From positions 62,001 to 126,000 of the forward strand of contig JAUCBJ010007945.1 in NCBI GenBank assembly GCA_032718475.1: 64,000 bases of DNA, given 5' to 3'. This DNA comes from Nemertoderma westbladi (Eukaryota > Animalia > Xenacoelomorpha). Each line of letters begins with the position of its first letter. Within the stretch, counting starts at the first letter, position 1. The notes beneath the pieces were generated by a model. The model was not told the DNA's origin. It saw only the letters and a program-made list of their open reading frames with translations, and made no database searches. Positions 7,422-62,095 of the stretch are shown here, one piece after another. The position numbers were made by a program, and so were the translations under genes.

Positions 7422-10022
7422 ATGGACCCAAATCGCCAAATTATCGGCGAATTACGTAATACGATAGATCTACTGGAATATCCGCAACCTGGATCCCCTA
7501 ACTTTGATACGAATTGGAACGCCCTGATAAATGAGAATGTGCGAGTCGTTAAATTCACCGGGCGAGAGGGACCGGACTCCAAGAATCTACGAGCCCTCCG
7601 GTTGGCCGATGCTAGTATGAGACTGAAAAGAACTCGGAACGCAAAGGCCACCGGAGAGGACGAGATGTCGTACTGGGATACGTTCCGGCAAAGCGTCTAC
7701 AAATCCCGATGTCTGATATACGACAACGAAGGAAACGCGACGCCCACCTCGAAAGCGATTACGTTGGCGCGATGTCAAAGTTTCGTCGACGACAAGAATA
7801 CGTACCTCGCCCACTGGGGAAACCTGTCGGAGTGTACGGCGACGCTACGAGAGGAACGTATATCGATCATCCAGAATCGCGACGACTACCAGGAAAAGTA
7901 CGGGGCGAAAGAATACGGTCGATCCTTGGTCATCGTCCTCGGAACCCTGGACGGTTTGGTATTGGTGTGTCGAATATTCCCGACACCCAGACAGGAAGTG
8001 CAGGCAGCCGGAGCGATCTGGTTACTACCTCCGGAAATCCAAAAGATCCTCTTCGACTTCGACGTCATTAAAATTGGGTCGGATATAAAGGCGGACGTCC
8101 GGAACGACTACGCGAACGCTCCTTCAGGAAGAGACCGTCGAGACGACCTCAACGCCCTTAGTCATTGCGTCGACACCCAAACGCTATTAGCCTGGTTACG
8201 ATTCGCCGAGTTCATGCGAGGTTTCCGCGAGGTGAGACCGACGAAATCCGGGATTGGCTATCTCGCCGTGCTAAATGGCGGCATCGACTTCAAACCCCAG
8301 AAATTCCGGGATTATAATAAAATATATGGTGGATACCCGGGATTAGAAATAAAGAGCGAGCGAGAGGGTCTATGGAAGGACGTTGAGAGAAAGTGGACGA
8401 TACACCAAAGGTGGGAGAATCCGGATCGACGGAACTACATCTACGTCGTTATGGAATCATACACCGTCGCTAAGTTTATCTGTAAAACTCTCGATAACCT
8501 CATTACGGCGGTTCCTCTTTCCTTCGTCGACTACGACTGGAACGAGGTTATAAACCACGCGTTTAAAGCGGTCGAGAAAATTACACCGGGAGAGACGAAA
8601 ACGCTCACTGTTATCGATTCCTGGGACGAGAACGGACCTTACGACATCCCTATGATTACCGATCTTCTCGGCGCAGAGGAGCCTCTGATTTCTTCGGAAG
8701 GGGAAGAACTATGGCTACAGGAGGGTGTTCTATTATCCACCCCAAAGCGACAACTCGAGCCGGAAGCCACGTACGGACCGGCCGCCAAACGGGTTGCCTC
8801 GGCCGAACCGACGACGAGAGCAGGCGCTTACGCCCCACTCGGCTCCGGTAGCCCTGCGAGGGAGGTAGCCACTACCTCTGCATTGAGCGACTTCGGCGAC
8901 ATATGCCAAAGGTTATCCCCATATCCTTTCCCGGGTGGCGAAGACTGGTCTTCGGAGATTCCGAGTACCAGCAATCAACGGTCCCGCTCAGCGATACTGG
9001 TTGAAAAGGGTCCCAGCGCTGCGCCGACTCCCGACGATCTCCTCGGAATCCCTCCGTCGAAAACCCCGGCACCTCTTCGCCGACCAGCGGTGGCTACTAC
9101 ACCTTCCGTCCCTCAGGATCCTATGCGATTAACCCGTTGGTACGCTGAGCAAACCGAATGGATCCACCGCCAGAAACGGTCGTCCGAGTTGAGACCGGCA
9201 GGACACAAAGAAGTTTATCGGAGCGAGAACCTACTACGCCAAAGCCCAGCCTTCCGCGGGCTACCGACCACCGCGAATATTCAAAAGAGCGACCGACGAC
9301 TCGAGTATTACGTCGGCGTCCCGATTCCGATATTCCCCGGTCGAGAGATGCAGCTGGAGGTGTGCGGTAACTGCGGTTCGGAGCAGTGCCCACGCGGTAG
9401 AAGAAATCGGGTTACCGATTCGTGCCTCCAGCTCCTCGGGATACCTTACTGCCCATACTGCGCGACATCGGGCCACGATGTTTCAGTCTGTCCGGTCCTC
9501 TATAACCTCTGCACTACGTGCGGTTTCCGTGGACATTCCGCTAGCCCCCGCTGCTATATAAAATGTTATAGTAAAGACGTTACCGCTATGGGGAATATGG
9601 TCATGTTTGAAACATACGCAAACAGCCACATAAGGACCAAAGTGCGGAGAAACGCTCGGAATATCGCGCAGGAGATGGCGTGCGGGTATTTCTCCTTCCC
9701 GGAACGCCTCCACACGTCGGCCACGCTACCTTTCCATTACGTGGATCTGTTGCTGAGCGCCGGATTATTCGGCCCATTCGAAGTCATTAGACGCTTATAC
9801 TCGTATAAAGAGGAGTTCGGTGACGGAAAGTGGTTCCTAGAGGCGCGCAACGCCGAGTTGGAAAGAAGAACCGATATGATCCCGATACCATCGAAAGGAA
9901 GAGCCGCCAGGAGACAAGCCGAAGCGTTGCTCACGATGGATGTTGACGCTGCCCTTCCAGCTCTAGCGATCGATGAGAGTCGACGGGCGAAGAGGAGAAA
10001 GGCGTATCAAAGAAAGAAATAG
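7422..10022 (+). CDS. BEL/Pao accessory ORF (866 aa): DnaQ/WRN-like 3'-5' exonuclease domain, Pro/Ser-rich linker, CCHC zinc knuckles and basic tail
   Basis: Intact ORF between pol and the PPT; IYDNEG (Exo I), LPPEIQKILFDFDVIKIGSDIKAD (Exo II), CVDTQTL, YVVME (Exo III variant); CPYCATSGHDVSVC, CTTCGFRGHSASPRC; ends RRAKRRKAYQRKK. Confidence 0.8.
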   Translation: MDPNRQIIGELRNTIDLLEYPQPGSPNFDTNWNALINENVRVVKFTGREGPDSKNLRALRLADASMRLKRTRNAKATGEDEMSYWDTFRQSVYKSRCLIYDNEGNATPTSKAITLARCQSFVDDKNTYLAHWGNLSECTATLREERISIIQNRDDYQEKYGAKEYGRSLVIVLGTLDGLVLVCRIFPTPRQEVQAAGAIWLLPPEIQKILFDFDVIKIGSDIKADVRNDYANAPSGRDRRDDLNALSHCVDTQTLLAWLRFAEFMRGFREVRPTKSGIGYLAVLNGGIDFKPQKFRDYNKIYGGYPGLEIKSEREGLWKDVERKWTIHQRWENPDRRNYIYVVMESYTVAKFICKTLDNLITAVPLSFVDYDWNEVINHAFKAVEKITPGETKTLTVIDSWDENGPYDIPMITDLLGAEEPLISSEGEELWLQEGVLLSTPKRQLEPEATYGPAAKRVASAEPTTRAGAYAPLGSGSPAREVATTSALSDFGDICQRLSPYPFPGGEDWSSEIPSTSNQRSRSAILVEKGPSAAPTPDDLLGIPPSKTPAPLRRPAVATTPSVPQDPMRLTRWYAEQTEWIHRQKRSSELRPAGHKEVYRSENLLRQSPAFRGLPTTANIQKSDRRLEYYVGVPIPIFPGREMQLEVCGNCGSEQCPRGRRNRVTDSCLQLLGIPYCPYCATSGHDVSVCPVLYNLCTTCGFRGHSASPRCYIKCYSKDVTAMGNMVMFETYANSHIRTKVRRNARNIAQEMACGYFSFPERLHTSATLPFHYVDLLLSAGLFGPFEVIRRLYSYKEEFGDGKWFLEARNAELERRTDMIPIPSKGRAARRQAEALLTMDVDAALPALAIDESRRAKRRKAYQRKK

Positions 10023-10200
10023 TGGACCGGGATATTCCAGGAACATTTATTGAACATTTATTTTTATACACATATATATCTATAAACTCTAGGCCAAATT
10101 AATTAAGACTATGCAATATTAAATTTGGGTTTTTTATATTGGGAATGACCTACGCAAACTCAATCTACCGATAGACCTCACGAAGGTCATTGGGGGGGAC

Positions 10201-11692
10201 TGTTCGCGGTATTTCAACTTTTCATAACGCGAGTTGAATATTTTTTGTATTTATTTAAAATGATTATTCCGATATCACTACTGGGTGCGGGACCATGGGT
10301 TTTGGGCACATTCTATGGACTGGGGGCGATTTATGGGCGAACATTGGGGCAACTTACAGGGTACGGGAATAATTTCATAGTTATAAGGCCAGGGGTGGGA
10401 GGCAAAGTTAAGCAGTATTCAGGTTAGCCTGAGTACTATTAGGCCCTGGCCAACTTCCTGCTGCCTGTAGAGGTGGATTTGGTAACGCGCCAGGCCTAAA
10501 GGACAAGGACTGCCCTTAGCGGCCCCTGGCCAACAGCAGTTACTACGAGCCTGAAAAGGACATCGGAACGCCGGCTGCTTGCGCCAGGGATTCGTGATGG
10601 GAAACGACAGCCCCCTTAGCTAAGCCGTACTGGTTCTCGATGACCGATCCCTCCGGGGTTCGCGAGGGGTGGGACGGACATGCGAAAGGGTTGGCCGACT
10701 AACAGAGGACGGGTTTGACGAGGACTGCCCTTAGCGGTCTCTGGTCAACAGCAGTTATTACGAGCCTGAAAAGGACATCGGAACGCCGGCTGCTTGTACC
10801 AGGGATTTGCGATGGGAACCGACGACAGACCCCTTAGCTAAGCCGTACTGGTTCTCGATGATCGATCCCTTCGGGGTTCGTGAGGGGTGGGATGGACATG
10901 CGACGGGGTCGAAAGACAAAGGACTGGACGCTACTGGCCTACCGACTGTTCGGAGCAGTTTCTCGGCTGCCGAAGCGACTACGAGCCTGAATAAGGACTC
11001 GGAAAGCCTAGGTGGTTGGGTCTCTGCGATGAACCGACGGACCCCTAGCCAAGCCGTACTGGTTCTCGATGATCGAACCCTTCGGGGTTCGGGAGGGGTG
11101 GGACGGATACGCGAACGGGTCCACCGACATGACAGACTCCTAGCCAAGCCGTACTGGTTCTCGATGATCGATCCCTTCGGGGATCGGGAGGGGTGGGACG
11201 GATAAGCGACAGAGTCTACCGACTGGACTGACCCTTAGCCAAGCCGTGCTGGTTCTCGATGATCGATCCCTTCGGGGTTCGGGAGGGGTGGAACGGACAC
11301 GCGACTGGGTCGACCGACACCGACACTACGGCACTAAGACTAGGACCAAGGGAAAATCTGGGGAACATTAGGTAGGCTAAAATCTGAGCGAACAGTGGGT
11401 AATTAAATAATATACTGTAGGGATTTATATTGTCGTGTATAATTATTGTGAATATTTGGTGTATATTGATTTGGGGAATCCCAATTAATTATCAATCAGG
11501 GTTCAACTGATTGATAATTACATTAAAGAGTATATCCAACCAATGCAACTTTTCCTCAACCGCAATCCTGCATTCAAGATATCATTCCTTCTCCACAATC
11601 AATATCCGGTGACTGGCCGGGACTCTGTGGTCTGTAAAGTCACGTCTCCAGCATCGGCGTTTTCCCCCCTGGTGTTTGGGATAACGGCAACA
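10201..11692 (+). repeat. 3' LTR of BEL family A (about 1.5 kb) with internal repeats
   Basis: Starts TGTT right after the TGGGGGGGAC PPT and ends AACA; contains five copies of a motif of about 72 nt between 10613 and 11304. Confidence 0.82.
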
Positions 11693-14600
11693 GTCAACCT
11701 CCTTATTCATTGTCAACCTCCTTATTCATTGTCAACCTCCTTATTCATTGTCAACCTCCTTATTCATTGTCAACCTCCTTATTCATTGTCAACCTCCTTA
11801 TTCATTGTCAACCTCCTTATTTATTGTCAACCTCCTCATTCATTGTCAACCTCCTTATTCATTGTCAACCTCCTTATTCATTGTCAACCTCCTCATTCAT
11901 TGTCAACCTCCTTATTCATTGTCAACCTCCTTATTCATTGTCAACCTCCTTATTCATTGTCAACCTCCTTATTCATTGTCAACCTCCTTATTCATTGTCA
12001 ACCTCCTTATTCATTGTCAACCTCCTTATTCATTGTCAACCTCCTCATTCATTGTCAACCTCCTTATTCATTGTCAACCTCTTCATTCATTGTCAACCTC
12101 CTTATTCATTGTCAACCTCCTTATTCATTGTCAACCTCCTCATTCATTGTCAACCTCCTTATTCATTGTCAACCTCCTTATTCATTGTCAACCTCCTTAT
12201 TCATTGTCAACCTCCTCATTCATTGTCAACCTCCTTATTCATTGTCAACCTCCTTATTCATTGTCAACCTCCTCATTCATTGTCAACCTCCTTATTCATT
12301 GTCAACCTCCTTATTCATTGTCAACCTCCTTATTCATTGTCAACCTCCTCATTCATTGTCAACCTCCTTATTCATTGTCAACCTCCTTATTCATTGTCAA
12401 CCTCCTTATTCATTGTCAACCCTATCATTCATTGTCAACCTCCTTATTCATTGTCAACCTCCTCATTCATTGTCAACCTCCTTATTCATTGTCAACCTCC
12501 TTATTCATTGTCAACCTCCTTATTCATTGTCAACCCTATCATTCATTGTCAACCTCCTTATTCATTGTCAACCTCCTCATTCATTGTCAACCTCCTTATT
12601 CATTGTCAACCTCCTTATTCATTGTCAACCTCCTCATTCATTGTCAACCTCCTTATTCATTGTCAACCTCCTTATTCATTGTCAACCTCCTTATTCATTG
12701 TCAACCCTATCATTCATTGTCAACCTCCTTATTCATTGTCAACCTCCTCATTCATTGTCAACCTCCTTATTCATTGTCAACCTCCTTATTCATTGTCAAC
12801 CTCCTTCATTCATTGTCAACCTCCTTATTCATTGTCAACCTCCTTATTCATTGTCAACCTCCTCATTCATTGTCAACCTCCTTATTCATTGTCAACCTCC
12901 TTATTCATTGTCAACCTCCTTATTCATTGTCAACCTCCTTATTCATTGTCAACCTCCTTATTCATTGTCAACCTCCTTATTCATTGTCAACCTCCTTCAT
13001 TCATTGTCAACCTCCTTATTCATTGTCAACCTCCTCATTCATTGTCAACCTCCTTATTCATTGTCAACCTCCTTATTCATTGTCAACCTCCTCATTCATT
13101 GTCAACCTCCTTATTCATTGTCAACCTCCTTATTCATTGTCAACCTCCTTATTCATTGTCAACCCCTATCATTCATTGTCAACCTCCTTATTCATTGTCA
13201 ACCTCCTCATTCATTGTCAACCTCCTTATTCATTGTCAACCTCCTTATTCATTGTCAACCTCCTTCATTCATTGTCAACCTCCTTATTCATTGTCAACCT
13301 CCTTATTCATTGTCAACCTCCTCATTCATTGTCAACCTCCTTATTCATTGTCAACCTCCTTATTCATTGTCAACCTCCTTATTCATTGTCAACCTCCTTA
13401 TTCATTGTCAACCCTATCATTCATTGTCAACCTCCTTATTCATTGTCAACCTCCTTATTCATTGTCAACCTCCTCATTCATTGTCAACCTCCTTATTCAT
13501 TGTCAACCTCCTTATTCATTGTCAACCTCCTTATTCATTGTCAACCTCCTTATTCATTGTCAACCTCCTTATTCATTGTCAACCTCCTCATTCATTGTCA
13601 ACCTCCTTATTCATTGTCAACCTCCTTATTCATTGTCAACCTCCTCATTCATTGTCAACCTCCTTATTCATTGTCAACCTCCTTATTCATTGTCAACCTC
13701 CTTCATTCATTGTCAACCTCCTTATTCATTGTCAACCTCCTCATTCATTGTCAACCTCCTTATTCATTGTCAACCTCCTTATTCATTGTCAACCTCCTTA
13801 TTCATTGTCAACCTCCTTATTCATTGTCAACCTCCTCATTCATTGTCAACCTCCTTATTCATTGTCAACCTCCTCATTCATTGTCAACCTCCTCATTCAT
13901 TGTCAACCTCCTTATTCATTGTCAACCTCCTCATTCATTGTCAACCTCCTTATTCATTGTCAACCTCCTTATTCATTGTCAACCTCCTTCATTCATTGTC
14001 AACCTCCTTATTCATTGTCAACCTCCTCATTCATTGTCAACCTCCTTATTCATTGTCAACCTCCTCATTCATTGTCAACCTCCTTATTCATTGTCAACCT
14101 CCTTATTCATTGTCAACCTCCTTCATTCATTGTCAACCTCCTTATTCATTGTCAACCCTATCATTCATTGTCAACCTCCTTATTCATTGTCAACCTCCTC
14201 ATTCATTGTCAACCTCCTTATTCATTGTCAACCTCCTCATTCATTGTCAACCTCCTTATTCATTGTCAACCTCCTTATTCATTGTCAACCTCCTTCATTC
14301 ATTGTCAACCTCCTTATTCATTGTCAACCTCTATCATTCATTGTCAACCTCCTTATTCATTGTCAACCTCCTTATTCATTGTCAACCTCCTTATTCATTG
14401 TCAACCTCCTCATTCATTGTCAACCTCCTTATTCATTGTCAACCTCCTTATTCATTGTCAACCTCCTTATTCATTGTCAACCTCCTCATTCATTGTCAAC
14501 CTCCTTATTCATTGTCAACCTCCTTATTCATTGTCAACCTCCTTCATTCATTGTCAACCTCCTTATTCATTGTCAACCTCCTCATTCATTGTCAACCTCC

Positions 14601-34646: not shown

Positions 34647-36132
34647 TAACGATGTATCTTACCGTAAGATCCAGTAGTGTATACGGGCTCGTACAGTATC
34701 TGACAATAAATCCCAGTCCAGGGTGTCTAAATAAACAGATACTAAATACGCGAACTACTACTGGCGAGGAACAGAGCCTGGTGTCTATTCTAATACATGG
34801 GCGAGTCAAATGCCCGGCGAACTAGACAAAACAGGATACCCGTCCTCTAACCGGTGAGGCAGATGTACAGTCTACGGTGACAGACCGGTAGCAGAAATAC
34901 TCCTTGCCTGATCAAATATCGCGGGCTCAGGCAGGGTTGTGGGTACTAATGTATAAGCTACAAAGTGAACCGGTACAGAACTGTCAGTACTACAAATCAC
35001 TAAATTATGGAACATATTCTGTCTGTACCTAAAGTGTATTTGCGTACTGACGAACAGCAATAGGACACACCTGTAGGAAATACAGGTTAATCCGGGGATT
35101 TTTAGTACGGGTTCTGCCTGAATCTGAGCTATTTGATCCTAAATTTTGCGGCGTCCCAGGACAGCTTCACGCTTACCCTGATCTATAGGTCTTACGGCGG
35201 GCAAGGGCGTCAAACAAAGTCTTACCTTCCTCTGAAACGGGCGCTGCATGGCAAAGGTGGCGTATTTGGAAGGGGGGGGGGGGGGGTGCGTGGGCTATTC
35301 TAATGTGGGCGCTTAGCATGTTGTGGACATCTTCTCCCTGCGTTGCTGATGGCCTAACAGTTTAAGCAGCCATCTCCCAAATGTTTGGCTGTCCCAATGG
35401 TGGACAAGACAAAATATACATGTTCAAAGTTTACAGTATATTTATGTAATTTACAAAAGATTTATCAAAGTTCAAGTTAATGTAACTAGAAAGGGTATAC
35501 AAGATTAACAAGATAAGTTAAGGAAAATAGTGTAGGGTAATAAGATAACTTAATGGTGTTAGTAAGTGATAACCGAAGGCAAACCGGCCCTTATATAGCA
35601 AATCTGGGACATAGAATTCACTAGAACCTTCCAGAGCATTCCATGGCCTCACATTGGAGCAATAAGATGTTCTATGCCCTATGATTGGCCCAACTCGTCA
35701 TTCCACATGTTGTACGCACCTCAATGGCTTATCTAATCAATCAGATTGAAAATAAATAGCCCAAAAATGCAAGCGTCTTCCTCGGAAGGTTCTCCTCTAT
35801 TTCTATGAGTTGCCGCAATGGCTCGTCTATTATCGCGGACTCGCTCGGATCCTCATCATCATGATGAGTGGTAGGCTTGCGAGCCTTCCAGGATCCTTCC
35901 GGGCCTTTGAACTCCGCGTGGAGTTCCCCGTCGTAGGGTACTAACGTCAACATCAACGGTCTGTCGACCTTGCTTCTTGCGTGATTTAGATAAATGTCCC
36001 TAAAAACGCTAAGTCCCGCTTGCGTGAAAACTTCGCAGTGCGCATCGGTGTTATAAAAGGGTTGGAGAAATCAGCAGAATACATCAGTATGCGTCCTAGA
36101 CACTTCGAGTCCTGGACTTAGAGTCCTAGACA

Positions 36133-36740
36133 CTACATCACAATGAAGCACACGTTCACTGAAGATTCAATCGCCAAATAGTATTGCAAGATTATTCGTG
36201 GAGGTGAGGTAATTGCCCAATACACGCAACCTCGCCAGTTCAACTGTGACTCAAACTCGGTTACGCCAGGGGTATCTCCCTCACCATATATGTCCATGTA
36301 TTTGCTCCTCTTACTCTCTTTATAGTCCCAACTGAACATTAGATATGAGATATAACCCATTCCAGTTTTTAGCGTGTTATACTCCCTGAAATATCCTTGC
36401 TCGATAGCCCAAAGCAACAATGGTCTAGTATCCACGTAAGGCGTAGGCAATCGATCCTCCTCCTCGGGCATTCCTGCGAAATCGCTAATAAGGTCCTCCC
36501 GTACACCGGATCCGATCTTGACGATACTCTTATTATGTACAATGTCATGCACGGCCTTTGGCAACATCCTAGCTTCTATGCTACAAGCCAGGTCCATGGA
36601 TTTAATTATCCGTTTTATCATCGCGTGTCTTTGCATCGTTACTTCCGGCATAGGCATCTTTCTATCGCTCCTCTGTCGGCTGAAGATGTGTAGCACTCTG
36701 TCAGGTGCTCGAATCTGTATGGTCTTCGTTACGTTCTACT
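36133..36740 (-). pseudogene. Remnant of the accessory 3'-5' exonuclease ORF (homologue of 7422-10022 and 59549-62095)
   Basis: Shares LP..V..(L/I)V..KS..K(I/V)GS..RED, VDT..LL, K(S/T)G.GY and YxxxE with the two intact ORFs. Confidence 0.75.
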
Positions 36741-38247
36741 AGATGAAGCACAAATAGAGGTTAGATGTGAGGAGACTTAGAGTTTTGTCGGCTTTTGGCT
36801 CAACTTTGCTCTAAAACCCCTACCCATTTGCCTAATGACTTCGGGTTTTGCGTGATTTCGCACTGGCTCCTAATTCAAAAAAATGGGCCGATAAAAAACG
36901 AATTCCGGGTAAACTAGCCGCGAGTCTAAAATACTCACCTTTTAATTTCCCAAACTACTTTCCCAAAGAAAAATAGTGCAGTCGAGAATTAATTTGGTCT
37001 AAAATAATAGTAGACACGACTACGTATAACAAGGCCGATTTTCTTTTCCAAAAAAAAAATTTATCGGTAGGCTCGCAAGCCTTCCATCCGCTCTTGTCCT
37101 TCCCAATTTTAATTTTTATCTAGCTGTATCCTAGAATTCGCATCCACTGGAGAATCGTTTTTTTTAATTTAAATCCAACCAAATGGATTTGTCTAATAAT
37201 TTTTGAAAAATTGTCTCACTTGTGGGTTCCAAGTGGAATTCCATTCCCACTGTACACACAATCCCGCTCCTATGTGATACATAAGGGTACTACCCTCCAT
37301 GTTCACATATAAAGACAATGGAATTCCACCGCTGCCTTTATCTACAGTGAAGAGGAATACAAATGTACATACAGTAATACAAAATACCAAATCGCTAAAA
37401 TACAGTAAGGCTATGTGGCGACCATCAAGGGTCCCACATCTTTATTTACTAAGATTGGGTGGAGATTTGTAGTCTCCTGTCTCATTTCTAGTCTCCTCAA
37501 GGAGCACGAGACGTTGTACAGGCCTATCTACGGTACGTCCGTCAATAGTCCGTACAGTAACTGTCCTTACTACACCAGATGTAGGGTGCGTGGTCAAAAT
37601 GACTCCAGTCAGCCAAAACCGTCTTTTCAGATTGGTTTCAGCCAATAAAACGTGGTCACCTCGTCTCAAACATCGGGTATTAAGATACCAAGAGGTTCTG
37701 GCCGAAATAGAGGGCTAATAGTGCTTCTGCCATATTTCCCAGAATTTGTTAGCTAACAACTGAGTGATTTTCCAAGCTTTGTTGCCGTATCCATCGCTAT
37801 CGACAGGTACCAAAGTGGGCAACAATGTCGTCGGCGCCTGCATAAGCAGGTGCGCTGGTGTCAAGGCAAACTGTGAGTCATTGTTGTCTGGGATCAAAGC
37901 GATTGGTCTAGTATTCAAAACCGCTTCGATTTCTAATAACATCATCAGTTGGTCGTCTGTCAAGATGCGTTGCATCGGTATTACTTTCGCCATAGCCATC
38001 TTAATTGACCCAATCAGTCTTTCCCAAACGCCACCTCTCCACAGACTGTCAGAAGTGTTAAAGCTCCAGACAATATGGTGAGGACGTAGTTCTTCGGAAA
38101 TCTGGTTTTGGTCCAACTTCTTTAAGGCTCTGGTGATTTCATCCGTGCATCCACAAAGTTAGTCCCTTGGTCGCAACAAATGGATTTGACCAATCCACAT
38201 CTAGCGATAAATCGTCGTAAGGCTAGGATAGAGGCGTTGGTGGTTAA
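36133..38247 (-). mobile_element. Decayed BEL/Pao element (family C): integrase remnant followed by an exonuclease-ORF remnant
   Basis: Minus strand: LALRRFIARCG, GGVWERLIGSIK, LNTRPI, LTPAHLL, GDHVLL, RPVQRLVLLE (37442-38247); downstream LPKAVHDIVHNKSIVKIGSGVREDL...YVDTRPLL...YLAIE (36133-36740). Confidence 0.8.
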
Positions 38248-49062: not shown

Positions 49063-49079
49063 CGAGAATGGTGGGAGTC

Positions 49080-49993: not shown

Positions 49994-50004
49994 AGATCTG
50001 GTGC

Positions 50005-50237: not shown

Positions 50238-50762
50238 TGTTAGCTTATTCACTCCCGCTAACACCCCATAAAGTTAAGCCGATAAGCAATATTGGGAGCC
50301 ATGAGATTGGGTAATCAATCACTCGTGCCACCCCAATAAGAATGGGAAGGAGAAGCACACAATGAGGGTCAGGGGCCAAACCCCTAACCCAGAGAGAACA
50401 GGTGGAGTGAACGGGAACACTCCAAAGGGCGCCAACAAGGGTATCAACCAATCAGAGGGGGGAAAGGCATCGATTAGGTAGAGTAACAAGGCCAACCGTG
50501 CAATATAGCCACTTGGCAGTAATCATATCAGTTCAGTTATCTCAGTGCAATACTGGTGCTAGTTTAGGTTAGATAGTTTAGCTAGGGAAGGACCGGGACT
50601 TTAGTTACCGTATCCCGCCTTCCGTGTACAACAATCTATATCTATATCTCTATACCGATCATTACATACAACGAACGACACGAACCCATTTACTCTTCAC
50701 ACACGGCTGGGACGCGTGAACTAACAACGGATAAACCGGGATCCCTCCTGGATCCCGTCACA
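50238..50762 (+). repeat. 5' LTR of BEL family B
   Basis: TGTTAG...GTCACA; about 5 substitutions versus the 3' LTR by eye. Confidence 0.96.
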
Positions 50763-50862
50763 GTAACTAAATCGAGCTGCCGCCCTAGTTAAACTGTAAA
50801 ACTAACTAAACCAACTGCTGGCCTAACTAGCTAAACCACCAGCCACCAATCTGCAGAAGGAG

Positions 50863-53800
50863 ATGAGTCAGTCGGGAGAGATAACACCGACGCGGACCCC
50901 GGACGAAGAACAAACGATCCGCGAGGCCGCGACCAGGCGGTATAGGCCCACGACGCCGGAGCCATCGGTAACGGGCGACCCGGAAGTTCAAGATGAGGGG
51001 GACCATCTGGAGTCAGAAGCCGAGTCGAGAGGAGGGGGAATCGAGTCGGAGGATAGAGAGAACGAGCTCGAGGGAGAAGGAGACGAGTCGACACGGGACG
51101 GGGGTCGACGCACCGGTGTCGCCGGCCTGCCACAGGCTGAGGGCGACGAGCGGCCCACCGAAACGGCGACGGTGGGGCCGACGGTGCGGCGCCGGACGCG
51201 GAGAAACGGAGGAGAAATCGGTACCGATGTCGCCGGCCAGCCACAGGCCAAGGGCGACGGACGGCCCGCACCGGCGACGGTGGGGCCGCCGGTACGACGT
51301 CGAACCCAGAGAGACGGACGAGAGGTCGGCGACGAGGACGTCGGGGTTTCTGAGCGACTTCGACGGGCCTACAACGCGACCCGGAGACTACTAGAGGAGG
51401 CCAGAAAGGGGAAAACGATAGACGAGGTAAAACTAAAATCAGGACTAGGTAAGTCGGACAGACATTTATATTATCTAATGCGCTTCGGGCAGAGAGAATT
51501 GGCCGAGGAGAGAGCAAAAGGGATTGCCAGCGAACTGTTTGGACTGTGGGAATGTGGGAGTATGGAACCTAGCGTAGCGTCAGTGTACATAGGGCCATAC
51601 TTGGTCGATGCCCGGGGAGTAAAATTAGTGGGTTGGAGGGGACCTGAAGGGGGCGAATCCGAGGTTAACCCCGAGGATTCGGCCTCGTCGGTCGGAGGAA
51701 GTTCCGGGAAGCGGGGGAAAGTTAGTAGATCGGGAAGGCGGAGGGAGTCCGTCACAACCGATAAGTCTGCTACATCCTCCGCAAAAGAAAGACTGGTGAG
51801 AGAGATAGGTGCCGCGTACCGTCTCGACCTGGTAGAGCAAGGTCAGAGGGAAATGGATAAACAGTTAGAGGAGGGGAGAATGCGGCTAGAAAGGGAAACG
51901 GTATTGATTAGAGAAACCGGAGAGAGGGCCGAAAGGGCTTTGAGAAGCCTTAGGGAGTATGAGGAAATAGAGAGGAAGGAACGAGAGGAGCGTGTGGCGG
52001 AACGCAAGGAGCGTGAGGCGAGAGTGTCCCACAGCCGTCAGCGGATAATGCGCGGGCCGAGATAGGTAAACCGCAACACCCGGCGACGGAAAGTAATAGG
52101 GGGATTGCGAGTATCCCCAGCGGCGTGCGACCGAGCAGAGAGAGATAGGTTGACGTCGTAAGAGGACGGACGAAGCGTCGAGCCCGATCAGAAGAGGGAA
52201 GAAGAATAGTGGGGTTTAACCGGGAGGTCGACGAGAGATCTCACGAGCGGGAATACTCCACTGAAAGGAGAAGAAGAGAAGACAGTAGTAGAGGTATCGC
52301 CGCGAACGATAGAAGAGCGAGGACGGATAGCGAGCCGTCGGTAGTTGAGATGAGAACGGAGAGTCAGTGGGGTCGGACTCCGGGAGATTGCCGTCGCCCC
52401 GGAGAGATGCGACCCGGCGAGGCGCACTACGCGCCGATGGAGGGGTACGCGATGTACCGGTACGAAGACGAGAACAGTAGAGGGGGGGGGTCGAAGAGAA
52501 ACTTTCCGACGGAATACACCTATCGATCGAGAATACGGTAGCCGCGGGGAGGACTATTCGAGAAGAATAAACTTCGATCCCGAGCGACACATGCAGACTG
52601 TAGGACATACTGTAGGCCTTACTGCACATACCATAGGCCATACTGAGAGAGGCAATATAGGGGATAGGATAGCGCGGGCAACGGGATTAAACCCAGAAGT
52701 CGCGGAATACATACCGACGAGTAGGCCAGAAGTTGATAGGCCTATACCGGTACCAGTACAGCAGTATGACTACAGCATGCAGGGACATAACATATACCCA
52801 GGGGAGGGGGGAATTATTGCGGATAGGTGTATGGGCCCCAACATATTAACATCAACCCCAGTACCAAACATACCGGCGGGGGGGGGGGGGACAGGGTGAC
52901 ATTCCCCCATCACAACATCAACAATATACCCCGATAGGAGCAAGAACAACGAGACCCTTGGATGAGAACAGATCGTGTGATACAGACATATGAAGGGGGC
53001 CGCTACCCCCGATGACATACCCAAGTCAGAGAAAGTCAAGAAATAGGACGGACGAACCGTACCAGACAGGAGAAACTACACAACATCCGTCGAACCCATT
53101 GGAAGCACAGGCGATGGGGATGGCCACGTTGATCGATGCGTTGAAAACGAGGATCGAGCTACCACCCGTGGAACCATTCAAATTCGATGGGAGCAGGCCG
53201 GAAGAATATCTACAGTTTCGGCGCATGTATAGTAACGAAATACTAACGAAAAACTTGACGCAGGCGGAGTGCCTAAAGTATCTGCAAGTATACACGGGAG
53301 GCCCAGCATACGATATCGTGAGGCAATATCAAGGAATAGAGGGAGGCTTCACGACAGCATGGCGGGCACTGGATAGGGAATACGGGCACCCGGCCAAGAT
53401 CATCAGGCAGACGCTGAGAGGCATAACATCGGGTGGCCTACAGGATAATCCCGTTAGCATTAAGACGATCGCTAACAAAGTCAAAAAGGCGCTAATCATG
53501 CTGAAAACGTTAGACGCGCCATACGAGCTCAACGCGTCCAATAACATCACCACGATAGCGCAGGCACTACCAAACTGGCTGCGCAACAAGTGGAGGAAGA
53601 TCGCTTTCTCCACTCGAGATAAGAAGGGTGCGGAACCGGGTTTAGAAGAAATGTCTAACTTCTTAAACTATGAGGCTGAACTAATAACTGACCGAGTCTA
53701 TAGCGAAGATAGCCTGGGAAAGGGACCAAAGACGGATTACCATAGACCGAAGCCAGAGCACTATATATCTAACGCATTACCGAGACTCAGGCAATCATTG

Positions 53801-56800
53801 CCATATGCAGCGACGCAGGGGACTGCAAGTCCATAGCTAGCCGAAGATAAGACAACACCATGGAATGGACAGGGAAACAATAACAACACGAACAAACATA
53901 ACCCCAGTACGTCCACTAGGCCGAATCCGAACAATAAGAATAGTAGGGACTTTGGTACGAACGCAACTGCGATACGCAATGCGCTGTATAAAGAGGGCTA
54001 TGATCCAAAGAGCAAATGCCAGCTACACGCAAATGCGCTTCATCAAACCATGAACTGCAGGTACTGGCAGGCGCTACCTAGGCAAGATCAGATAGATTAT
54101 GCGTCGAGCAATAAAATCTGCTCGCGATGTGTAATGAGTGGACATAGAGCAAGGGAGTGCAAGGAGAAGCCGATAAAATTTGGTCAGAGGAGAGGCCAAA
54201 CGATGGCGACGAGCACAGTAGGGGCGAAGAAGAGAGGAACGGTGTTACTTGGAGTAGTACCCGTGCGAGTGATTGGGGAAGGCAATCGATCAGTAACAAC
54301 ACTAATGCTGGTTGATAGTGGAGCTGCCTTCACATTAGTCGAGGAATGGGTGGCCGAAGAGATAGGATTGAGAACGTGGCCAAGCAGAATGGCGGTAACA
54401 ACCATCTCTAGCAAAGATGAGATCCTGGAGATGAGAACAGGACGGTGCGCAATTGCAGCAGTGGCACCAGGATGCGACTATGGGGCAACCATCGACCCCA
54501 TCCAAGTGATAGAGTCAATTAATATCAATGCCAGGCGGCCAACCAACATCGAGGTCGAGCAGTATAAATTCCTGGACGACATTGACTTCTCAATCCCAGA
54601 CGTGGACGTTAGGAAGGTATCCATCATAGTAGGGATGGACTGCCCAACGGCCCACGAAAGAATGCAAACAGTCTTCGGCGAAGACAAGCAGTGTGACCCG
54701 GTGGCGATATTAACACCATTCGGGTGGACGCTGAGTGGCCCAATCAAGAGCAAGATACCATTTAGGATGTCGGAGACATCAGGATGCATGTTCGCGGGAA
54801 CAATGCAGGAAATGGGTGACGAGGGAGCAGAGGAGCAGCTTAAAAGACTGCTCAGACAGGATTTCGAGGGACTGAAAGAAACCGGGGTCGGGACCTCGGT
54901 AGAAGACAAGCAGGCTTTACAAAGCGTGGAGGAATCGATGACATGCAATGAGGGGCGGTATACTATAGGAATGGTATGGAAGCTACCGAAGATACCGCTG
55001 CCCGACAATAGAGGGATGGTACTCACGAGACTCCGCAAGCTGAAACAAACACTAAAACGGAGCCCCGAGAAGAATGAGTACATCCACAGAACAATTAAGA
55101 AGTACGTCGAGAAAGGATGGGCCGTGGAGTTACCGGTCGACGAGCCGAACACGGACAGGACATATTACCTGCCACTACACGTGGCTTTAGACCCAAAGAA
55201 AGGTAAACTACGGATGGTAGTCGACGCATCGGCAAAGACCGACCGGAAAATGCTTAAACGACTACCTGTTAGAAGGCCCAAACATATACAATTCGGGCAT
55301 AGAGGTGTTACTTAGATTTAGAAATGGGAAACACGCCTTCACGTGTGACATAGAAGGCATGTTCAACCAAGTCCGTGTAACGGAAGAAGATAGCGACAGT
55401 CAACGCTTCTTATGGTATAACGGCGAGGAAGAACCATCGATAATACCGGCATATAAGATGGTAGTACAGAACATGGGGGCCAAGTCGTCTTCATTTACGA
55501 CGACTATGGCAGTGAGAGACACAGTGAAAGGGAAGGAAGATAGATACAGCAGTAGGGCCGTCGATATGATTCGACGCGGCTTCTACGTAGACGACGGAAT
55601 GGAGTCTGGAAATACGGTTAAGGAGATACTGGACACAGGGCGCGAGGTTCGCGACATCCTAAAAGGATCCGGCTTTAACCTGACCAAATTCCAATCCAGT
55701 TCGGAAGAATTTATCAAGGCGATAGAGGACAAGAGACCAGAATCGACCATGGATAATCCCACAACAGCCAAAGGGCAGGACATGGCGATTAAGAGAACAG
55801 AATCTCAACAGAAGGCACTAGGAATCGTGTGGAACAGAAAGACAGACGAACTGAAGTATCAGCTGAGCCAGGGGGCGCAGACATCCACACGAAGAGGGGC
55901 TATGTATCGTATATAGCAAGGATATACGATCCCCTAGGCCTAGCATCCCCATTATTAGTCACGGGGAAACAGATACTCAAAAGAGTATACAAATTGAAGG
56001 ATGAGTGGGACGTAGAGGTACCAGAGGAAATCAAAAAACAGTGGATCAAGTGGACAGGAGACTTGGAGGAGATGGGAACATACAACATGCCACGAGTGTA
56101 TTTCCCGGATGGGGACATGAGGAATCTGGACCTACACATGTTCTCCGACGCGTCGTTGGAAGCGTACGGAGCGGCACTCTACTTAGTACAACGAGAGGGG
56201 GCTCATAAGCCCAGATTAGCCTTTAGCAAAGCAAAGTCAACGCCGCCAGATTCAGCATCAGTTCCCAAGTTAGAATTGACAGCTGCGAGACTAGGAGTTA
56301 GAGCCACAGCCTACCTAGTGGATACTATTCCCAACATAGTAGAGACACACTACTGGACGGACTCTATGGTAGTGCTTGGTTGGCTACACAACGAAAGGAC
56401 GAGATACCCGATATTCGTCGCGAATAGAGTGGACGAAATAAGGGCGAGCACAGAACTGGAAAGGTGGCACTACTGCCCAACGGACGAGAACCCAGCGGAC
56501 TTGTTGTCGAGGGGCGTGGTACGCCACACTTTCTTGAAGAAGGAAGTATTGTGGCAACATGGGCCACAATTTCTGAGCGATAAGGAGGCCTGGCCGCCGA
56601 TGAGAAAGGTGGATCCGGGCTCAGAAGTAGTGTCAGAGGGAGAAGAGGGAGATTCAGAGGGGGAAGAGATATACTCCCAGATGGTGAGGGAGATTAGGGA
56701 CGTGCAACCAGGACGAGAACTGTGCGATAACCCGACGGATAAACTCCTCAGCTACAGTTCTAGTTGGTATAAGACCAAGAAACTAGTGGCGTACTGGAGA

Positions 56801-58202
56801 GCCTTCGGGAATTTCCTTGCGGGAGTTGGCAAGGACAAGAAGATCAGGACAACCATAGATCTGGAAGGAGCGGCCAAGGCAGTGATCCGCTATGAACAAC
56901 GGAAGAACTATAGCGACGAGGTGGAACGCGTCGGTAACCAACAGCACCTCCGACGGGACAGCGAGCTGATTACGCTGTCGCCACAACTCAGTGACGACGG
57001 GATTCTAGTAATGAATTCTAGGGTGGGATACAACAACAGTCGTACCACCGAAACCCATCATCATTCCCACAGGATCGCCAATAGTCCACCAGATTATCTG
57101 GGACTCCCACAAATCGATATTACATGGGGGCACCAACCGAACCCTCACAGAGATAAGGAGGACCTATTGGGTCAAACAGCTGAGGAAGAAGGTAAAAGCG
57201 GTAGTGGGGCAGTGCCAGACCTGCCGACGAGCGAAGAAGGAGCGAGCCATACAGGAGATGGCGCCACTACCGGCGAGTAGGGTAAGACAGCACGACCCGC
57301 CATTTACGCATTGCGGTGTGGACATGTTCGGGCCGATAAAGATCAAAGTGATGCGACACACGGAGAAACGCTATGGCATTATCTTCGTATGCAACAACAC
57401 ACGGGCGGTAGGGATAGAACTCGCCCAAGATGCAACCGCATCAGCATTCATTAATGCCTTAGAAAGGTTTAGAGACCACAAAGGTGGGACGATCGCAGTG
57501 ATATACAGCGACAACGGCACCAACTTTGTGGGCGCAGAGAGTGAGATGGCAGAGGCCTTGGACATCTTGGAGGGAGAAGAAGTCAGGGCAGCCATGAGAC
57601 GACGACAAGTAAAGTGGGAGAGAAGGACGCCGTATGCACCACATACACTAGGATGCGTCGAGAGACTGGTGGGCAGTTCAAAGCGTCTAATGACGAAGCT
57701 AATGAACACCCACATGGTCACTGAGGACGTCTTACGGACAGTACTTGCGAAGTGCGAGGGGATCATTAATAGCAGACCGCTATATCCGGAGAATGATGAC
57801 CCTGAGTCATTAGACGTGCTGACGCCTAGCCATTTCCTGATGGAAAGGCCAGCGACCATCGATATGCGGGGTGTAGACCCAGATGAAAGTTGGAAAGTCG
57901 CTAAAGCAATAAGCGCAGAGTATTGGAGGAGGTGGGTCGAGGAATACCTACCCACACTCCATAAAAGGAGTAAGTGGAGGAAGCCAAATAGGGAGTTAAG
58001 AGAGGGAGATCTCGTAATCGTTACGGATGATACTATCATCAACAACCAATGGCGGTTGGCGAGAGTTGTAGGCACTTACTCCGACGAGGATGGAAGAGTC
58101 CGATCGGTAGAAGTGCGGATAGGTGGTAAGATAGGTGCGAAGGACAGAAAAACCTACAGGAGAGCTGTAGGGAAATTCTGTCTGCTAGAAGGAGCACCTT
58201 AG
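50863..58202 (+). pseudogene. BEL/Pao gag-pol, fragmented by frameshifts and stops
   Basis: DUF1759-like gag (ELPPVEPFKFDG...AWRALDREYG), knuckle CSRCVMSGHRAREC, protease LVDSGA, RT DIEGMFNQV...FYVDD, RNase H FSDAS...PKLEL...WTDS...NPADLLSRG, integrase GVDMFGP...SDNGTNFVG...GKFCLLE. Confidence 0.93.
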
Positions 58203-58354
58203 TGGAATTAGAGAAGAGTTTAGTCGTCCAAGATTTGGACTGAGGGGGGTGGGATTGAGGGCGAGACGCCCTTCCCACGCAAGAAAAAATGGAAAATAAT
58301 AATAAAATAAATAAGTACATAGTAGGTACGCAGTTAGTAGGCAGAAGTTAGTTA

Positions 58355-59060
58355 AGAGGTACGTAGTACCTAGTTAGTTAGTTAGAGTTAGAGGGTACGT
58401 AAGTACCGCTAGTTAGTTAGAGTTAGAGGGTACGTAGTACCGCTAGTTAGTTAGAGAGTTAGAGGGTACGTAAGTACCGCTAGTTAGTTAGAGTTAGAGG
58501 GTACGTAGTACCGCTAGTTAGTTAGAGAGTTAGAGGGTATGTAAGTACCGCTAGTTAGTTAGAGTTAGAGGGTACATAGTACCGCTAGTTAGTTAGAGAG
58601 TTAGAGGGTACGTAAGTACCGCTAGTTAGTTAGAGTTAGAGGGTACGTAAGTACCACTAGTTAGTTAGAGTTAGAGGGTACGTAGTACCGCTAGTTAGTT
58701 AGAGAGTTAGAGGGTACGTAAGTACCGCTAGTTAGTTAGAGAGTTAGAGGGTACGTAAGTACCGCTAGTTAGTTAGAGTTAGAGGGTACGTAAGTACCGC
58801 TAGTTAGTTAGAGTTAGAGGGTACGTAGTACCGCTAGTTAGTTAGAGAGTTAGAGGGTACGTAAGTACCGTTAGTTAGTTAGAGAGTTAGAGGGTACGTA
58901 AGTACCGCTGTTAGTTAGAGTTAGAGGGTACGTAGTACCGCTAGTTAGTTAGAGAGTTAGGGGGTACGTAGTACCGTTAGTTAGAGGAGAGTTAGAGGGT
59001 ACGTAGTACCGTTAGTTAATTGGAATTAGAGTTAGAGGGTACGTAGTACCGTTAGTTAGA
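58355..59060. repeat. 34-37 bp tandem repeat in the pol-to-accessory-ORF spacer of family B, about 20 copies
   Basis: Unit TAGTTAGTTAGAGTTAGAGGGTACGTAAGTACCGC with indel variants. Confidence 0.93.
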
Positions 59061-59548
59061 AGAGAGAGAGTAAGAGGTAAAAGGGGTATATAAGATATAG
59101 ATATTAGTTAGCAGTTAGTAGCGAGAGGGGGGCATGTGAGTACAGCTGGGTAAATCGTGTGGCCACACGACGCATACTGCTGTACTACATAGGCCCACAG
59201 AGTAGGCCAGAATGTGGATTAGAGAATAGAATAATCCATAGGCAGTAGTAAGTAGTAGGACAGTAGAATCAAAATTAAATAGATAAATAAATAGAATAGG
59301 GCTGAAAGTTACAAATAATGGCAACACAAGGAAAGTTATTCTAGAACATAATAAAAGTAACGGACAGAAATCGTAAATTACGCTCATTTACTAGCTTCAA
59401 AATTAATTAGTAATAATTTAGGCTAAAAGGCGCAGTTAAGTAAGAAATAGGCCATTATCGGACCGTACAGAACATCCTAGATTCATCACTCATCTGTATT
59501 GCGCCTTGGTAAGGCACCACCTTGCAGGTGAGCGAGTGAGTGTTCGGA

Positions 59549-62095
59549 ATGGCGAGCAAGTTGATCAGAAAGAGAAAGGCGGAGTCAGGAGGAAAGGAGA
59601 TACTGGTGGATTTCACCGAGAGGCATCCGGAAGAGAAGACGAGAGGATATTACGAGAGGTTGGAAAGGGGTCACGCGGCACGAGCGCTGCAGGATCACTT
59701 CCGGGAGATGAACGAACAGTGGCTGGTCGGGACCTATGGGACGCCGTCGCTGGACAACGCGATCTTCCAACACTTCCACTACGTGGTGAAAGGGGACGAG
59801 GCGAAGTTCGGGATTCCGAAGTACCCAAGGGAATCACCGAGGAAGGACTGGAAGAGATTCATAGAATCCGTCAACAGAGGAGGATATATGATCCTAGACG
59901 ATGAGGGAACCGTGGAAGACGAGGCGGGTTCGAGACGAGGAACGGCGGGGTCGGCCAGGACCATACTCCTACATTTGGCCGCGCCAAATGGGGACATCTT
60001 CTTATTCGATCTAGGAATGTATGGGAAGAAGGACGGGCCGAAATTAAACCGGTTACCGAAAGCGGTACAAGTCTTGGTAAGAGAGAAGTCGACGACGAAA
60101 GTGGGATCGGCGATTCGCGAGGATGCGGAGAGAATCGTCGGTCCGGACGCCACCAACCTCCTGGATATGCTGAAGGTCTTTATGGCTATGACGGCACCGG
60201 ATGGGTTGGGGGTAGTCGAAAACACAGGCCAATGCGGGGCGGTGGCAATGGGCCAATTATTGGGGCTCGTGTGCCACAAACCGATGGATTGGGGGAAGTT
60301 TAGGGAAGAATACGGAGCAGAACTAGCGAACTCGCTAAAGTGGGGAGCGAGACCGGGAAAGCAGGAGGTATATCAATTCCGCAGGGGAGCGATAAAGGTA
60401 TATCAGAAGCGATATATCCTGCAGGAGGACTGGATGATGACAAGTTTGCTTAACTTATTCATGACCGTGGTTATCGAGAGGGAACCAGGGGCATTTCTGT
60501 TATCGGGATCACCCCTAAGCTACAGGAGAGCCTTTAAAGTGGCCTTCGACGGTCTGGTAGACCACCCGGGGCTGAAGGGCGAGTCGGTGTACTACAACAG
60601 CCGGCATCTGGTAGACGGGGAGACAGATACACCGTATCAGAGATGGGAGCAGCTAGAAACGGATAGACGAGAAGCAAAGCGACTAGAGGAAGTCGCCAGA
60701 CGGGAGAGGATAGAAGCAGAGGAGAGGGAAGAGGAGGCCAGGACACAGAGTTACGGCTTCGAGGAACAGGCAGGCCTAGACGAACTTCATTGGACTTCAT
60801 CAGGGAGTTCGGGGGAGCTTCTAGGGCGAGAACTGGGATGGACGGTGGGATCACCGAAACAGTCGATGTCGGGGTTGCAAACGATGCCCATACCAGCGGG
60901 CGCCGAAGGCGACCAACCGCCAAGGAAGTTAAGGGAGTTAGAGGGATGGAGAGCTACGGGCGAGAGCCAAGGCGGGAAGGGACATAGTGGATCCATCGGG
61001 ATACCGGGGTTGGAGTCACTGCCAGAGGAGGAGGACGACGACGACGAGTTTGGAGAGATGCCGCCCATCGAGAGGATAGGCCACTCGGACACGGACTGGG
61101 TTGGCGGGAGGGTGGTGACGACCAGTGGGGCGAGAGCCTTCTGGGACAAACCCGGCAAGCGGGCCTGGGTGCACAAGGAGCCGGCGATGGATTTCGCGGG
61201 GAGCACTATCAGGTTGGGCAGGCAACCGGGGACGGCACCACGGGTAGTATTCGGGGAGACGATGCCCAAGAGGGGCGGAGAGATCGACGTAGACAGAGAT
61301 GCTAACGTGGAGAAATTCGCCTATCAGCGACTCCACAGACCGCGGAGATTGCTTGGGATGAAAGACGACGTGGGGCGGGAGACATTGGTACTCGGTTGCG
61401 GCTACTGTGGGAGACAGACCCACCAGGAAAGGAGCTGCTTGTACCGGTTCCAGAAGGGAACCTTTTGTCTCTACTGCCGAGAGCCAAGCCACAGGATGGG
61501 GGCGTGTCCACGGTTGCATAACCGATGTCCAAAGTGCCACTTTCGGGGACACTACGGACGCGAGTGCGACTGGATGAACGACGAGGAGAAGTTCACAAGA
61601 TTCGAGGAGTGGGCCGACGTCGGGGCCATGACGCGTCAGCACATGAAGGCCCAGGAGTTCAAGTGGGGTTTCTTCCTTATCAATCAGGAGACTCACATGG
61701 AAATCATAAAGCGGAGGCTACTGTTTACCTACCAAGAGGTAGCAACGGCGGCGTCGTACGCCGGAGTGATGAACACGCAAAGATATTTGGACAGGTGGAC
61801 GCCACAGAACCGAAGGGAGTTTAGGGATTTCTTGGCGGAGCATGTACCGCAAGCAATGAAAATGATCCTATGGGACGCCACCAGAGGGAGACAACCGGGC
61901 CACTCTGAGGGGCCACCGGCGAAGCGATATCGGGCACTAATAACACCAGCGCCCAAGGAGCCAACGACCGGGATCAGCAGGGAGGTGGCGGCGAAGGTCC
62001 GAAAGCAGAAAGCGGATCCCAGAGGAACGGTGGTAACCAAGAAACGACCCAGGGAAGAGGACGCCAGGGGGAACTATCCCCAGAGGAACAGATAG
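59549..62095 (+). CDS. BEL/Pao accessory ORF (about 848 aa): DnaQ/WRN-like 3'-5' exonuclease, acidic/Gly linker, three Cys/His zinc knuckles and basic tail
   Basis: First ATG at 59549; ILDDEG (Exo I), LPKAVQVLVREKSTTKVGSAIRED (Exo II), LLDMLKV, YILQE (Exo III variant); CGYCGRQTHQERSC, CLYCREPSHRMGAC, CPKCHFRGHYGREC. Confidence 0.82.
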   Translation: MASKLIRKRKAESGGKEILVDFTERHPEEKTRGYYERLERGHAARALQDHFREMNEQWLVGTYGTPSLDNAIFQHFHYVVKGDEAKFGIPKYPRESPRKDWKRFIESVNRGGYMILDDEGTVEDEAGSRRGTAGSARTILLHLAAPNGDIFLFDLGMYGKKDGPKLNRLPKAVQVLVREKSTTKVGSAIREDAERIVGPDATNLLDMLKVFMAMTAPDGLGVVENTGQCGAVAMGQLLGLVCHKPMDWGKFREEYGAELANSLKWGARPGKQEVYQFRRGAIKVYQKRYILQEDWMMTSLLNLFMTVVIEREPGAFLLSGSPLSYRRAFKVAFDGLVDHPGLKGESVYYNSRHLVDGETDTPYQRWEQLETDRREAKRLEEVARRERIEAEEREEEARTQSYGFEEQAGLDELHWTSSGSSGELLGRELGWTVGSPKQSMSGLQTMPIPAGAEGDQPPRKLRELEGWRATGESQGGKGHSGSIGIPGLESLPEEEDDDDEFGEMPPIERIGHSDTDWVGGRVVTTSGARAFWDKPGKRAWVHKEPAMDFAGSTIRLGRQPGTAPRVVFGETMPKRGGEIDVDRDANVEKFAYQRLHRPRRLLGMKDDVGRETLVLGCGYCGRQTHQERSCLYRFQKGTFCLYCREPSHRMGACPRLHNRCPKCHFRGHYGRECDWMNDEEKFTRFEEWADVGAMTRQHMKAQEFKWGFFLINQETHMEIIKRRLLFTYQEVATAASYAGVMNTQRYLDRWTPQNRREFRDFLAEHVPQAMKMILWDATRGRQPGHSEGPPAKRYRALITPAPKEPTTGISREVAAKVRKQKADPRGTVVTKKRPREEDARGNYPQRNR

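Follow-up and report, generated by a model that had tools for sequence, protein, structure and literature searches.

Some BEL/Pao retrotransposons almost certainly carry a third gene, ORF3, in which a predicted DEDDy exonuclease domain and a predicted three-site zinc domain are joined by a variable linker. The window, by which we mean the whole 64,000-nt stretch analysed, is satellite-rich animal DNA containing three BEL/Pao elements, A, B and C (Table 1). In all three, as the preliminary description had claimed, the ORF lies 3' of a BEL-type integrase on the same strand (Pfam DUF5641; E 7e-31 in A, 4e-25 in C and 4e-11 in B). The three integrases share 30-38% identity and group in a single clade with support 0.99. 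At the DNA level no similarity is evident (blastn among the three ORFs gave no match at E<=0.01), and the protein motifs said to be shared are all present.

Table 1. Positions of the features of elements A, B and C in the window.
Feature	Position	Strand	Evidence or remark
19-nt satellite, 5' border where element A is truncated	1495-2944		
Element A, RNase H end and integrase of BEL/Pao pol	2945..4725	+	Pfam Integrase_H2C2, DUF5641
LINE fragment within pol-ORF3 spacer of element A	5392..6832	-	RVT_1 E 1e-28; short target duplication flanking
ORF3 of element A (ORF3-A), 866 aa	7422..10022	+	open frame, family profile
DEDDy domain of ORF3-A (predicted)	7605..8600	+	ExoI 7719, ExoII 8073, ExoIII 8442; D-E-D-Y-E
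Cys/His zinc domain of ORF3-A (predicted)	9357..9713	+	motif and profile
Polypurine tract (PPT) of element A	10192..10199	+	
3' LTR of element A	10201..11692	+	ends inferred from PPT, TG..CA and satellite at 11693; 5' LTR absent for comparison
Element B, ORF3 remnant	36034..36735	-	ExoII and ExoIII; without ExoI or zinc domain
Element B, 3' part of BEL integrase	37445..38158	-	DUF5641; one internal stop
Element C, 5' LTR, 525 nt	50238..50762	+	preceded by 5-nt target duplication
Element C, gag-pol	50827..58202	+	several frames, broken; DUF1759, Asp protease, RVT_1, Peptidase_A17 E 1e-40, Integrase_H2C2, DUF5641
Tandem repeat, pol-ORF3 spacer of element C	58350..59066	+	
ORF3 of element C (ORF3-C), 848 aa	59549..62095	+	open frame
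DEDDy domain of ORF3-C (predicted)	59771..60559	+	ExoI 59894, ExoII 60101, ExoIII 60413; D-E-D-Y-E
Cys/His zinc domain of ORF3-C (predicted)	61376..61711	+	
Polypurine tract of element C	62799..62807	+	
Element C, 3' LTR	62808..63332	+	followed by 5-nt target duplication; 5 differences from 5' LTR

The elements differ in how much of them is left. Element C is complete in outline, with the order gag-PR-RT-RH-IN and with the Pao peptidase (PF05380), DUF1759 and DUF5641 all present; its empty site is seen in runs X1 and X5, which indicates that the insertion is polymorphic. Element A retains a PPT and a single LTR, everything 5' of the RNase H/integrase region is missing, and the LINE fragment in its spacer has a read depth about 100-fold above that of the element. 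The upstream parts of element B are missing, and no LTR, PPT or target duplication was assigned to it. Thus A and C, earlier called intact, are intact in the sense that ORF3 is open, but A is 5'-truncated and holds the LINE, and the gag-pol of C is broken. Nor do these ORFs end directly before the PPT: gaps of about 170 nt (A) and 700 nt (C) follow them, although no other ORF intervenes. Between pol and ORF3 the window elements have spacers of 0.7-1.3 kb, suggesting that ORF3 would be expressed from a spliced or internal message.

The ORF3s of A and C are covered by contigs of runs X1, X3 and X5 in many variants, and so is pol. Since these variant contigs span ORF3 as well as pol, A and C represent repeat families that include ORF3, read depth being no measure of copy number here. 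Among the differences listed for ORF3-C, 13 of 15 fall at third codon positions, in a selected subset with ten from one short stretch. For ORF3-A the figure is 13 of 30 (p 0.17); these differences look private to the copy and carry no signal of selection.

The N-terminal domain of ORF3 is predicted to have a DEDDy (DnaQ-like) exonuclease fold, as the preliminary description had proposed from motifs; profile searches against PDB and structure matches of an AlphaFold model back the proposal. Pfam, one of the checks suggested earlier, found no domain in either long window protein, while PF01612 was matched by one of 37 and one of 31 relatives. A phmmer search with ORF3-C against 1.84 billion representatives gave 64 matches through the C-terminal Cys/His domain; aligned with the window proteins, the 27 long ones have an N-terminal domain in common with them as well, bearing ExoI, ExoII and ExoIII motifs. 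A profile of these sequences (A2) matched EXD2 in PDB at E 2.5e-13, followed by Egalitarian at 1e-5, WRN and mut-7. With a nuclease-only profile of 31 sequences (A6), EXD2 was matched at E 1.9e-12 with ExoI-III in register, and Egalitarian was absent from the matches. The family profile matches ORF3 of all three elements (E 4e-46, 3e-40 and 9e-24), which speaks for consistency and is not independent evidence, because rows from A, C and B were among its training sequences.

The AlphaFold model of the ORF3-C nuclease domain has a pLDDT of 84. In VIA comparisons it aligned with NrnC (Z 14.8, rmsd 3.7, 170 aligned residues), WRN (Z 14.3, 3.2, 179) and Nibbler (Z 14.1, 3.2, 189), and PolA-type exonuclease domains reached Z 12-14.5. 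Of 999 chains, 335 had Z>=8, and among the matches listed these were DEDDy proteins only. Egalitarian was the top Foldseek match (E 7e-6) and had Z 12.7 in VIA. ESM Atlas features of the nuclease region matched unnamed and PF01612 clusters at 0.91-0.93, which we take as a lead only.

Hydropathy of ORF3-A and ORF3-C is consistent with the earlier statement that the protein is not env, as no signal peptide or transmembrane segment is evident outside the nuclease core. The sole hydrophobic stretch of ORF3-A (residues 168-186, KD 2.09) falls on beta strands of the nuclease fold in the alignment. Among 39 long ORF3 frames of relatives, one has a TM-like stretch, located upstream of the conserved start.

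The catalytic residues vary. The individual motifs noted earlier are present in the window copies, but the last catalytic position is Glu and not Asp in A, B and C, so that the signature of ORF3-A and ORF3-C is D-E-D-Y-E. Among 47 scorable relatives from the loci listed, 20 have D-E-D-Y-D, three more have four acidic residues, seven have one site that varies or is unaligned, and in 17 the acidic residues of ExoI are missing. All but one of the catalytically dead forms in the tree fall into a single clade (support 1.0), which is still under constraint. A profile of this clade alone matched no DEDDy structure; the catalytic and dead groups are nevertheless homologous over 239 columns (hhalign 99.8%). 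An active nuclease, as assumed in the preliminary description, is therefore not supported as a general account of ORF3.

In the C-terminal domain, three Cys/His sites precede a helical part in which Gly and Thr are conserved. The CX2CX4HX4C-type knuckles reported earlier are there, but as part of this set of three motifs and not alone. The spacing is canonical in the window ORF3s and often CX4C in relatives, and Pfam zf-CCHC was matched in two of 86 zinc-domain sequences (E 0.003). The model of this domain (pLDDT 84) had no fold match at Foldseek E<=0.001, and its best Z among 48,161 chains was 2.4, with none at Z>=5; this is not proof that the predicted fold is new. The likeness to knuckles weakly suggests that the domain binds RNA.

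To quantify linkage between ORF3 and BEL/Pao pol, we scanned metagenomes with a degenerate 63-nt motif from the zinc domain, which in the window matches ORF3-A and ORF3-C only (chance expectation 0.00). The scan returned at least 120 loci, of which 80 had flanks; the 40 without flanks were used for the zinc domain only. Among the flanked loci listed, 58 of 80 have the nuclease domain 5' of the motif, and 40 of these 58 have a BEL integrase further upstream on the same strand. Counted by available sequence among the matches listed, the integrase is present in 27 of the 29 loci that have 3 kb or more upstream and in 35 of the 44 that have 1 kb or more, whereas no listed nuclease locus with 1 kb or more upstream has one on the opposite strand. 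Nine loci with at least 1 kb lack it. Five of them are short contigs with linked close relatives and one is a decayed copy; the remaining three (L009, L033 and L075) are one sequence, unexplained, with no integrase in up to 2.2 kb. Outside the nuclease-bearing set, L074 matches the motif by chance inside a bacterial gene, and L004 and L052 have neither nuclease nor integrase. In two loci, L048 and L061, the zinc domain is kept with BEL pol while the nuclease is undetectable.

The nuclease domains of the loci listed fall into 34 groups at 50% identity, and the linkage proposed earlier is found in many independent families. The RNase H region was matched by tblastn in 26 loci, and PF05380 was found in the four relatives scanned whole. 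The integrase profile includes one out-of-frame row from element A; tblastn with in-frame queries gave the same picture. Of the 35 linked loci with at least 1 kb upstream, 33 belong to a single series of eight assembly accessions. Their hosts are presumably animals, as BEL/Pao is described as a metazoan group in the available text of PMC3118150. The motif scan of viral contigs and the tblastn search of phages gave zero matches each. Protein searches seeded with words from P0001, from alignment A2 and from the RNase H region found no match, the cut-off in the last of these being too strict.

The claim that ORF3 is an old, maintained module is borne out by its co-divergence with the integrase and by purifying selection. 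Across 28 elements, the nuclease and integrase trees are correlated with rho 0.80 (0 of 2000 permutations), share 9 of 11 and 9 of 14 well-supported splits and show no conflict at support >=0.9. This agreement fits vertical inheritance of ORF3 with pol; the trees hold ORF3 carriers only, with no ORF3-less outgroup and with unresolved deep nodes, and do not imply a single gain. The dN/dS of the nuclease is 0.03-0.55 in 19 of 20 overlapping pairs, the other being saturated, and 0.03-0.40 in seven pairs without catalytic residues. For the zinc domain it is 0.02-0.33 where unsaturated among 20 overlapping pairs. Mean distance is about twice as large for the nuclease (4.2) as for the integrase (2.2), as might be expected of a host-facing accessory.

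Across relatives it is not catalysis that stays constant but the zinc domain together with the nuclease fold, and on this ground we read ORF3 as an RNA-end-binding accessory. Our preferred account, held tentatively and at somewhat less than even confidence, is that it would most likely shield the element against silencing or decay of RNA by the host. As in trypanosome RNase D, the zinc domain would grip single-stranded RNA and pass its 3' ends on to the nuclease. Where catalytic residues are kept, ORF3 would trim this RNA; where they are lost, it would do no more than bind it, like Egalitarian, EXD1 and Maelstrom derivatives. The target might be host small RNAs or the element's own RNA. Several observations weigh against this account: the zinc domain has no structural match, dN/dS indicates constraint and not the positive selection predicted by an arms race, and DEDDy folds act on DNA too, with the exonuclease domains of WRN and PolA tying for the top Z.

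Alternatively, ORF3 could be a particle component that aids reverse transcription or integration, being packaged, chaperoning genomic RNA and trimming the 3' ends of primer or cDNA. We consider this somewhat unlikely but close behind the preferred account, and part of its evidence comes from the junction with pol. In 11 of the 40 linked loci listed, ORF3 is in frame behind the stop of pol, with an open spacer of 140-266 codons to the nuclease; shuffled spacers were open in 0-36 of 2000 cases, a chance level that is understated because about 40-60 codons of the span belong to ORF3. The stop is always UGA, followed in 9 of 11 loci by C. For each of the 15 UGA loci, the 150 nt 3' of the stop have a better predicted fold than their mononucleotide shuffles (z -0.5 to -4.8). 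In RNA viruses, UGA-C followed by a 3' structure serves as a readthrough signal. The in-frame arrangement therefore suggests readthrough in some families and points to a Pol fusion that may be packaged in the particle, which would favour a particle role over a shield.

The resemblance of the knuckles to nucleocapsid would suit a particle component as well, and so would a PBS-complementary motif in the 3' UTR, found in 10 of 12 members of the dead clade against 0 of 21 others. On the other hand, four relatives with the same UGA context lose the frame farther on, there is no in-frame run in 29 of 40 linked loci or in A, B and C, the protein sequence of the spacer is poorly conserved, and most BEL/Pao elements replicate without ORF3, according to the available text of PMC3118150. 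Nor does the PBS type track catalytic state. A nuclease maturing a self-primer was considered separately and rejected as a general explanation, since relatives of both kinds carry a tRNA-type PBS.

Returning to a protective role against silencing, a bolder version can be drawn up, in which an ancient BEL/Pao lineage swapped env for a nuclease-zinc protein directed against small-RNA silencing. It would be the first enzyme known from an animal LTR retrotransposon to be dedicated to acting against piRNAs; in one branch it would have become a dead RNA-binding decoy, many families would deliver it as a Pol fusion by UGA readthrough, and its zinc domain would have a fold without a solved structure. 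Taken as a whole, we judge this version rather unlikely.

We regard it as improbable that ORF3 is an Egalitarian-like adaptor routing element RNA or particles to the germ line, that is, a functional substitute for env without a membrane. Egalitarian is the top Foldseek match and the second DEDDy match by profile, and the domain is retained without catalysis. Nevertheless, NrnC, WRN and Nibbler all score above Egalitarian in VIA, it is absent from the matches of the larger profile A6, and four acidic residues are kept in 23 of 47 relatives. Proofreading for the reverse transcriptase appears quite improbable: PolA-type domains do match the model and some families may fuse ORF3 to Pol, but the loss of catalytic residues in conserved relatives makes proofreading unlikely as a shared function, 9 of the 11 possible Pol fusions are themselves forms without ExoI acids, and L048 and L061 keep the zinc domain where the nuclease is undetected. 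It is hardly credible, and already contradicted, that ORF3 was captured as a passenger or is an env-like protein whose motifs match by chance, for despite the scarcity of Pfam matches the fold and profile agree, purifying selection acts, and the one TM-like stretch lies 5' of the conserved start.

Exonuclease ORF3s of LTR elements are already known. The rotifer precedent mentioned in the preliminary description is real: DEDDy ORF3s occur in the Juno and Vesta LTR elements and Athena Terminons of bdelloid rotifers (PMC5408684) and are cited in reviews (PMC5718144, PMC6431247, PMC6338049). As in our elements, the rotifer ORF3s are DEDDy exonuclease-like, lie 3' of pol in the env position, and have one catalytic Asp changed to Glu (PMC5408684). 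In contrast, as far as the available text of PMC5408684 goes, their carriers are the Juno and Vesta clades, with dUTPase and a GPY/F integrase, and not BEL/Pao; their gain is called recent and repeated, whereas ORF3 here co-diverges with the integrase; and neither a C-terminal triple zinc domain nor a conserved catalytically dead clade is described. Their residues are given as DEED, against DEDD or DEDE here, a distinction made by description and not by sequence.

For BEL/Pao, we found no DEDDy ORF3 in the open full-text literature, a scope apart from supplements, subscription papers, Repbase, GyDB and Dfam. The available text of the BEL/Pao and crustacean surveys PMC3118150, PMC8556966 and PMC12241861 makes no mention of an exonuclease, and that of PMC2996953, which does not mention ORF3, and PMC11599104 contains no BEL/Pao exonuclease case. 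Within the literature searched, BEL/Pao carriers thus appear to be new. BEL/Pao elements with env likewise have a third ORF between the integrase and the 3' LTR, but the TM and glycoprotein features described for it (PMC3118150, PMC11599104, available text) are absent here, where a soluble nuclease fold is predicted instead. Dada DNA transposons of Laccaria and Ectocarpus also have a DEDDy domain, but inside the DDE transposase (PMC3706591, available text).

Among host proteins, EXD2, WRN-exo, Nibbler/Mut-7, EXD1 and Egalitarian share the fold and ExoI-III, with EXD2 the best sequence match; identities in structural alignments are 10-15%, and no donor can be named. Trypanosoma brucei RNase D (TbRND) resembles ORF3 in combining a DEDDy domain with a C-terminal CCHC zinc domain, and both halves of ORF3 match it. 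TbRND acts on small RNA, and it requires the zinc-finger domain both to bind RNA and to cleave it efficiently (PMC7797062, available text). It differs in being a host mitochondrial enzyme; ORF3 for its part has a long low-complexity linker. Because the match between the zinc domains is weak (Foldseek E 0.42), a parallel architecture is likely.

The role of non-env third ORFs in LTR retrotransposons is a standing question, and the rotifer DEDDy ORF3s are unassayed in the available text of PMC5408684. Old, conserved and present in dozens of families, ORF3 amounts to a natural experiment, in which variants with canonical residues, with Glu at ExoIII, without catalysis and without the nuclease can be compared directly. 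Almost none of them is recognised by Pfam, so that in repeat libraries these ORFs probably go unannotated or are labelled env.

In the clade of metagenome relatives whose nuclease domain has lost the ExoI Asp/Glu, a 13-nt motif just upstream of the polypurine tract is complementary to the primer binding site (PBS) of the element itself. Among the matches listed, the motif occurred in 10 of 12 in this clade versus 0 of 21, with a null of 4/360; since all carriers belong to one clade, this counts as a single event. The complementarity would possibly allow RNA pairing between the 5' and 3' ends.

Element C lacks a TGG tRNA-type PBS. The 9 nt directly 3' of its 5' LTR (50763-50771) are complementary to a 9-mer within the LTR (50600-50608), which was seen in 23 of 20,000 shuffles. 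This arrangement fits a self-priming signature. Metagenome relatives among the matches listed have a tRNA-type PBS. Downstream of remnant B, at 35300-35700 (-), TGG follows what may be the end of an LTR, which is unassigned to any element.

In 11 relatives, the pol stop is a UGA in frame with ORF3, the third gene, which lies behind pol. Among the matches listed, most of these stops read UGA-C and the RNA 3' of them is structured, and the peptide behind them is weakly conserved. These stops are candidate readthrough sites.

Two BEL elements have an ORF3 that carries the zinc domain with no detectable nuclease domain. In L009, L033, L075 and L017 a nuclease of the N-E-E-H-N variant is joined with the zinc domain. 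Within the at most 2.2 kb available upstream of these four, no integrase was found; they may represent a non-autonomous copy, another element type or a host-adopted gene.

Features with their loci or coordinates
Feature	Location	Strand
PBS-complementary motif in 3' UTR	L008, L028, L034, L035, L039, L040, L062, L067, L071, L072	
Pol stop UGA in frame with ORF3	L008, L022, L030, L032, L035, L040, L067, L068, L071, L072, L080	
BEL element, ORF3 with zinc domain and no detectable nuclease domain	L048:3341-6529	
BEL element, ORF3 with zinc domain and no detectable nuclease domain	L061:6880-9648	
LINE fragment	5392-6832	-
LINE fragment	48095-49062	
Separate LINE, two ORFs	26145-30753	
19-nt satellite	1495-2944 and 11693-23358	
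Internal repeats, LTR of element A	10502-11319	
634-aa frame	31894-34646	+

Element A is embedded in the 19-nt satellite, and the repeats inside its 1.5-kb LTR are roughly 95 and 215 nt long. Other satellites, with units of 42, 74, 41 and 18 nt, occupy much of the window. The two LINE fragments are 97% identical to each other, and their parent LINE is very abundant. In the 634-aa frame, a 30-nt tandem repeat continues into an Ulp1-like protease (Peptidase_C48, E = 4e-4).
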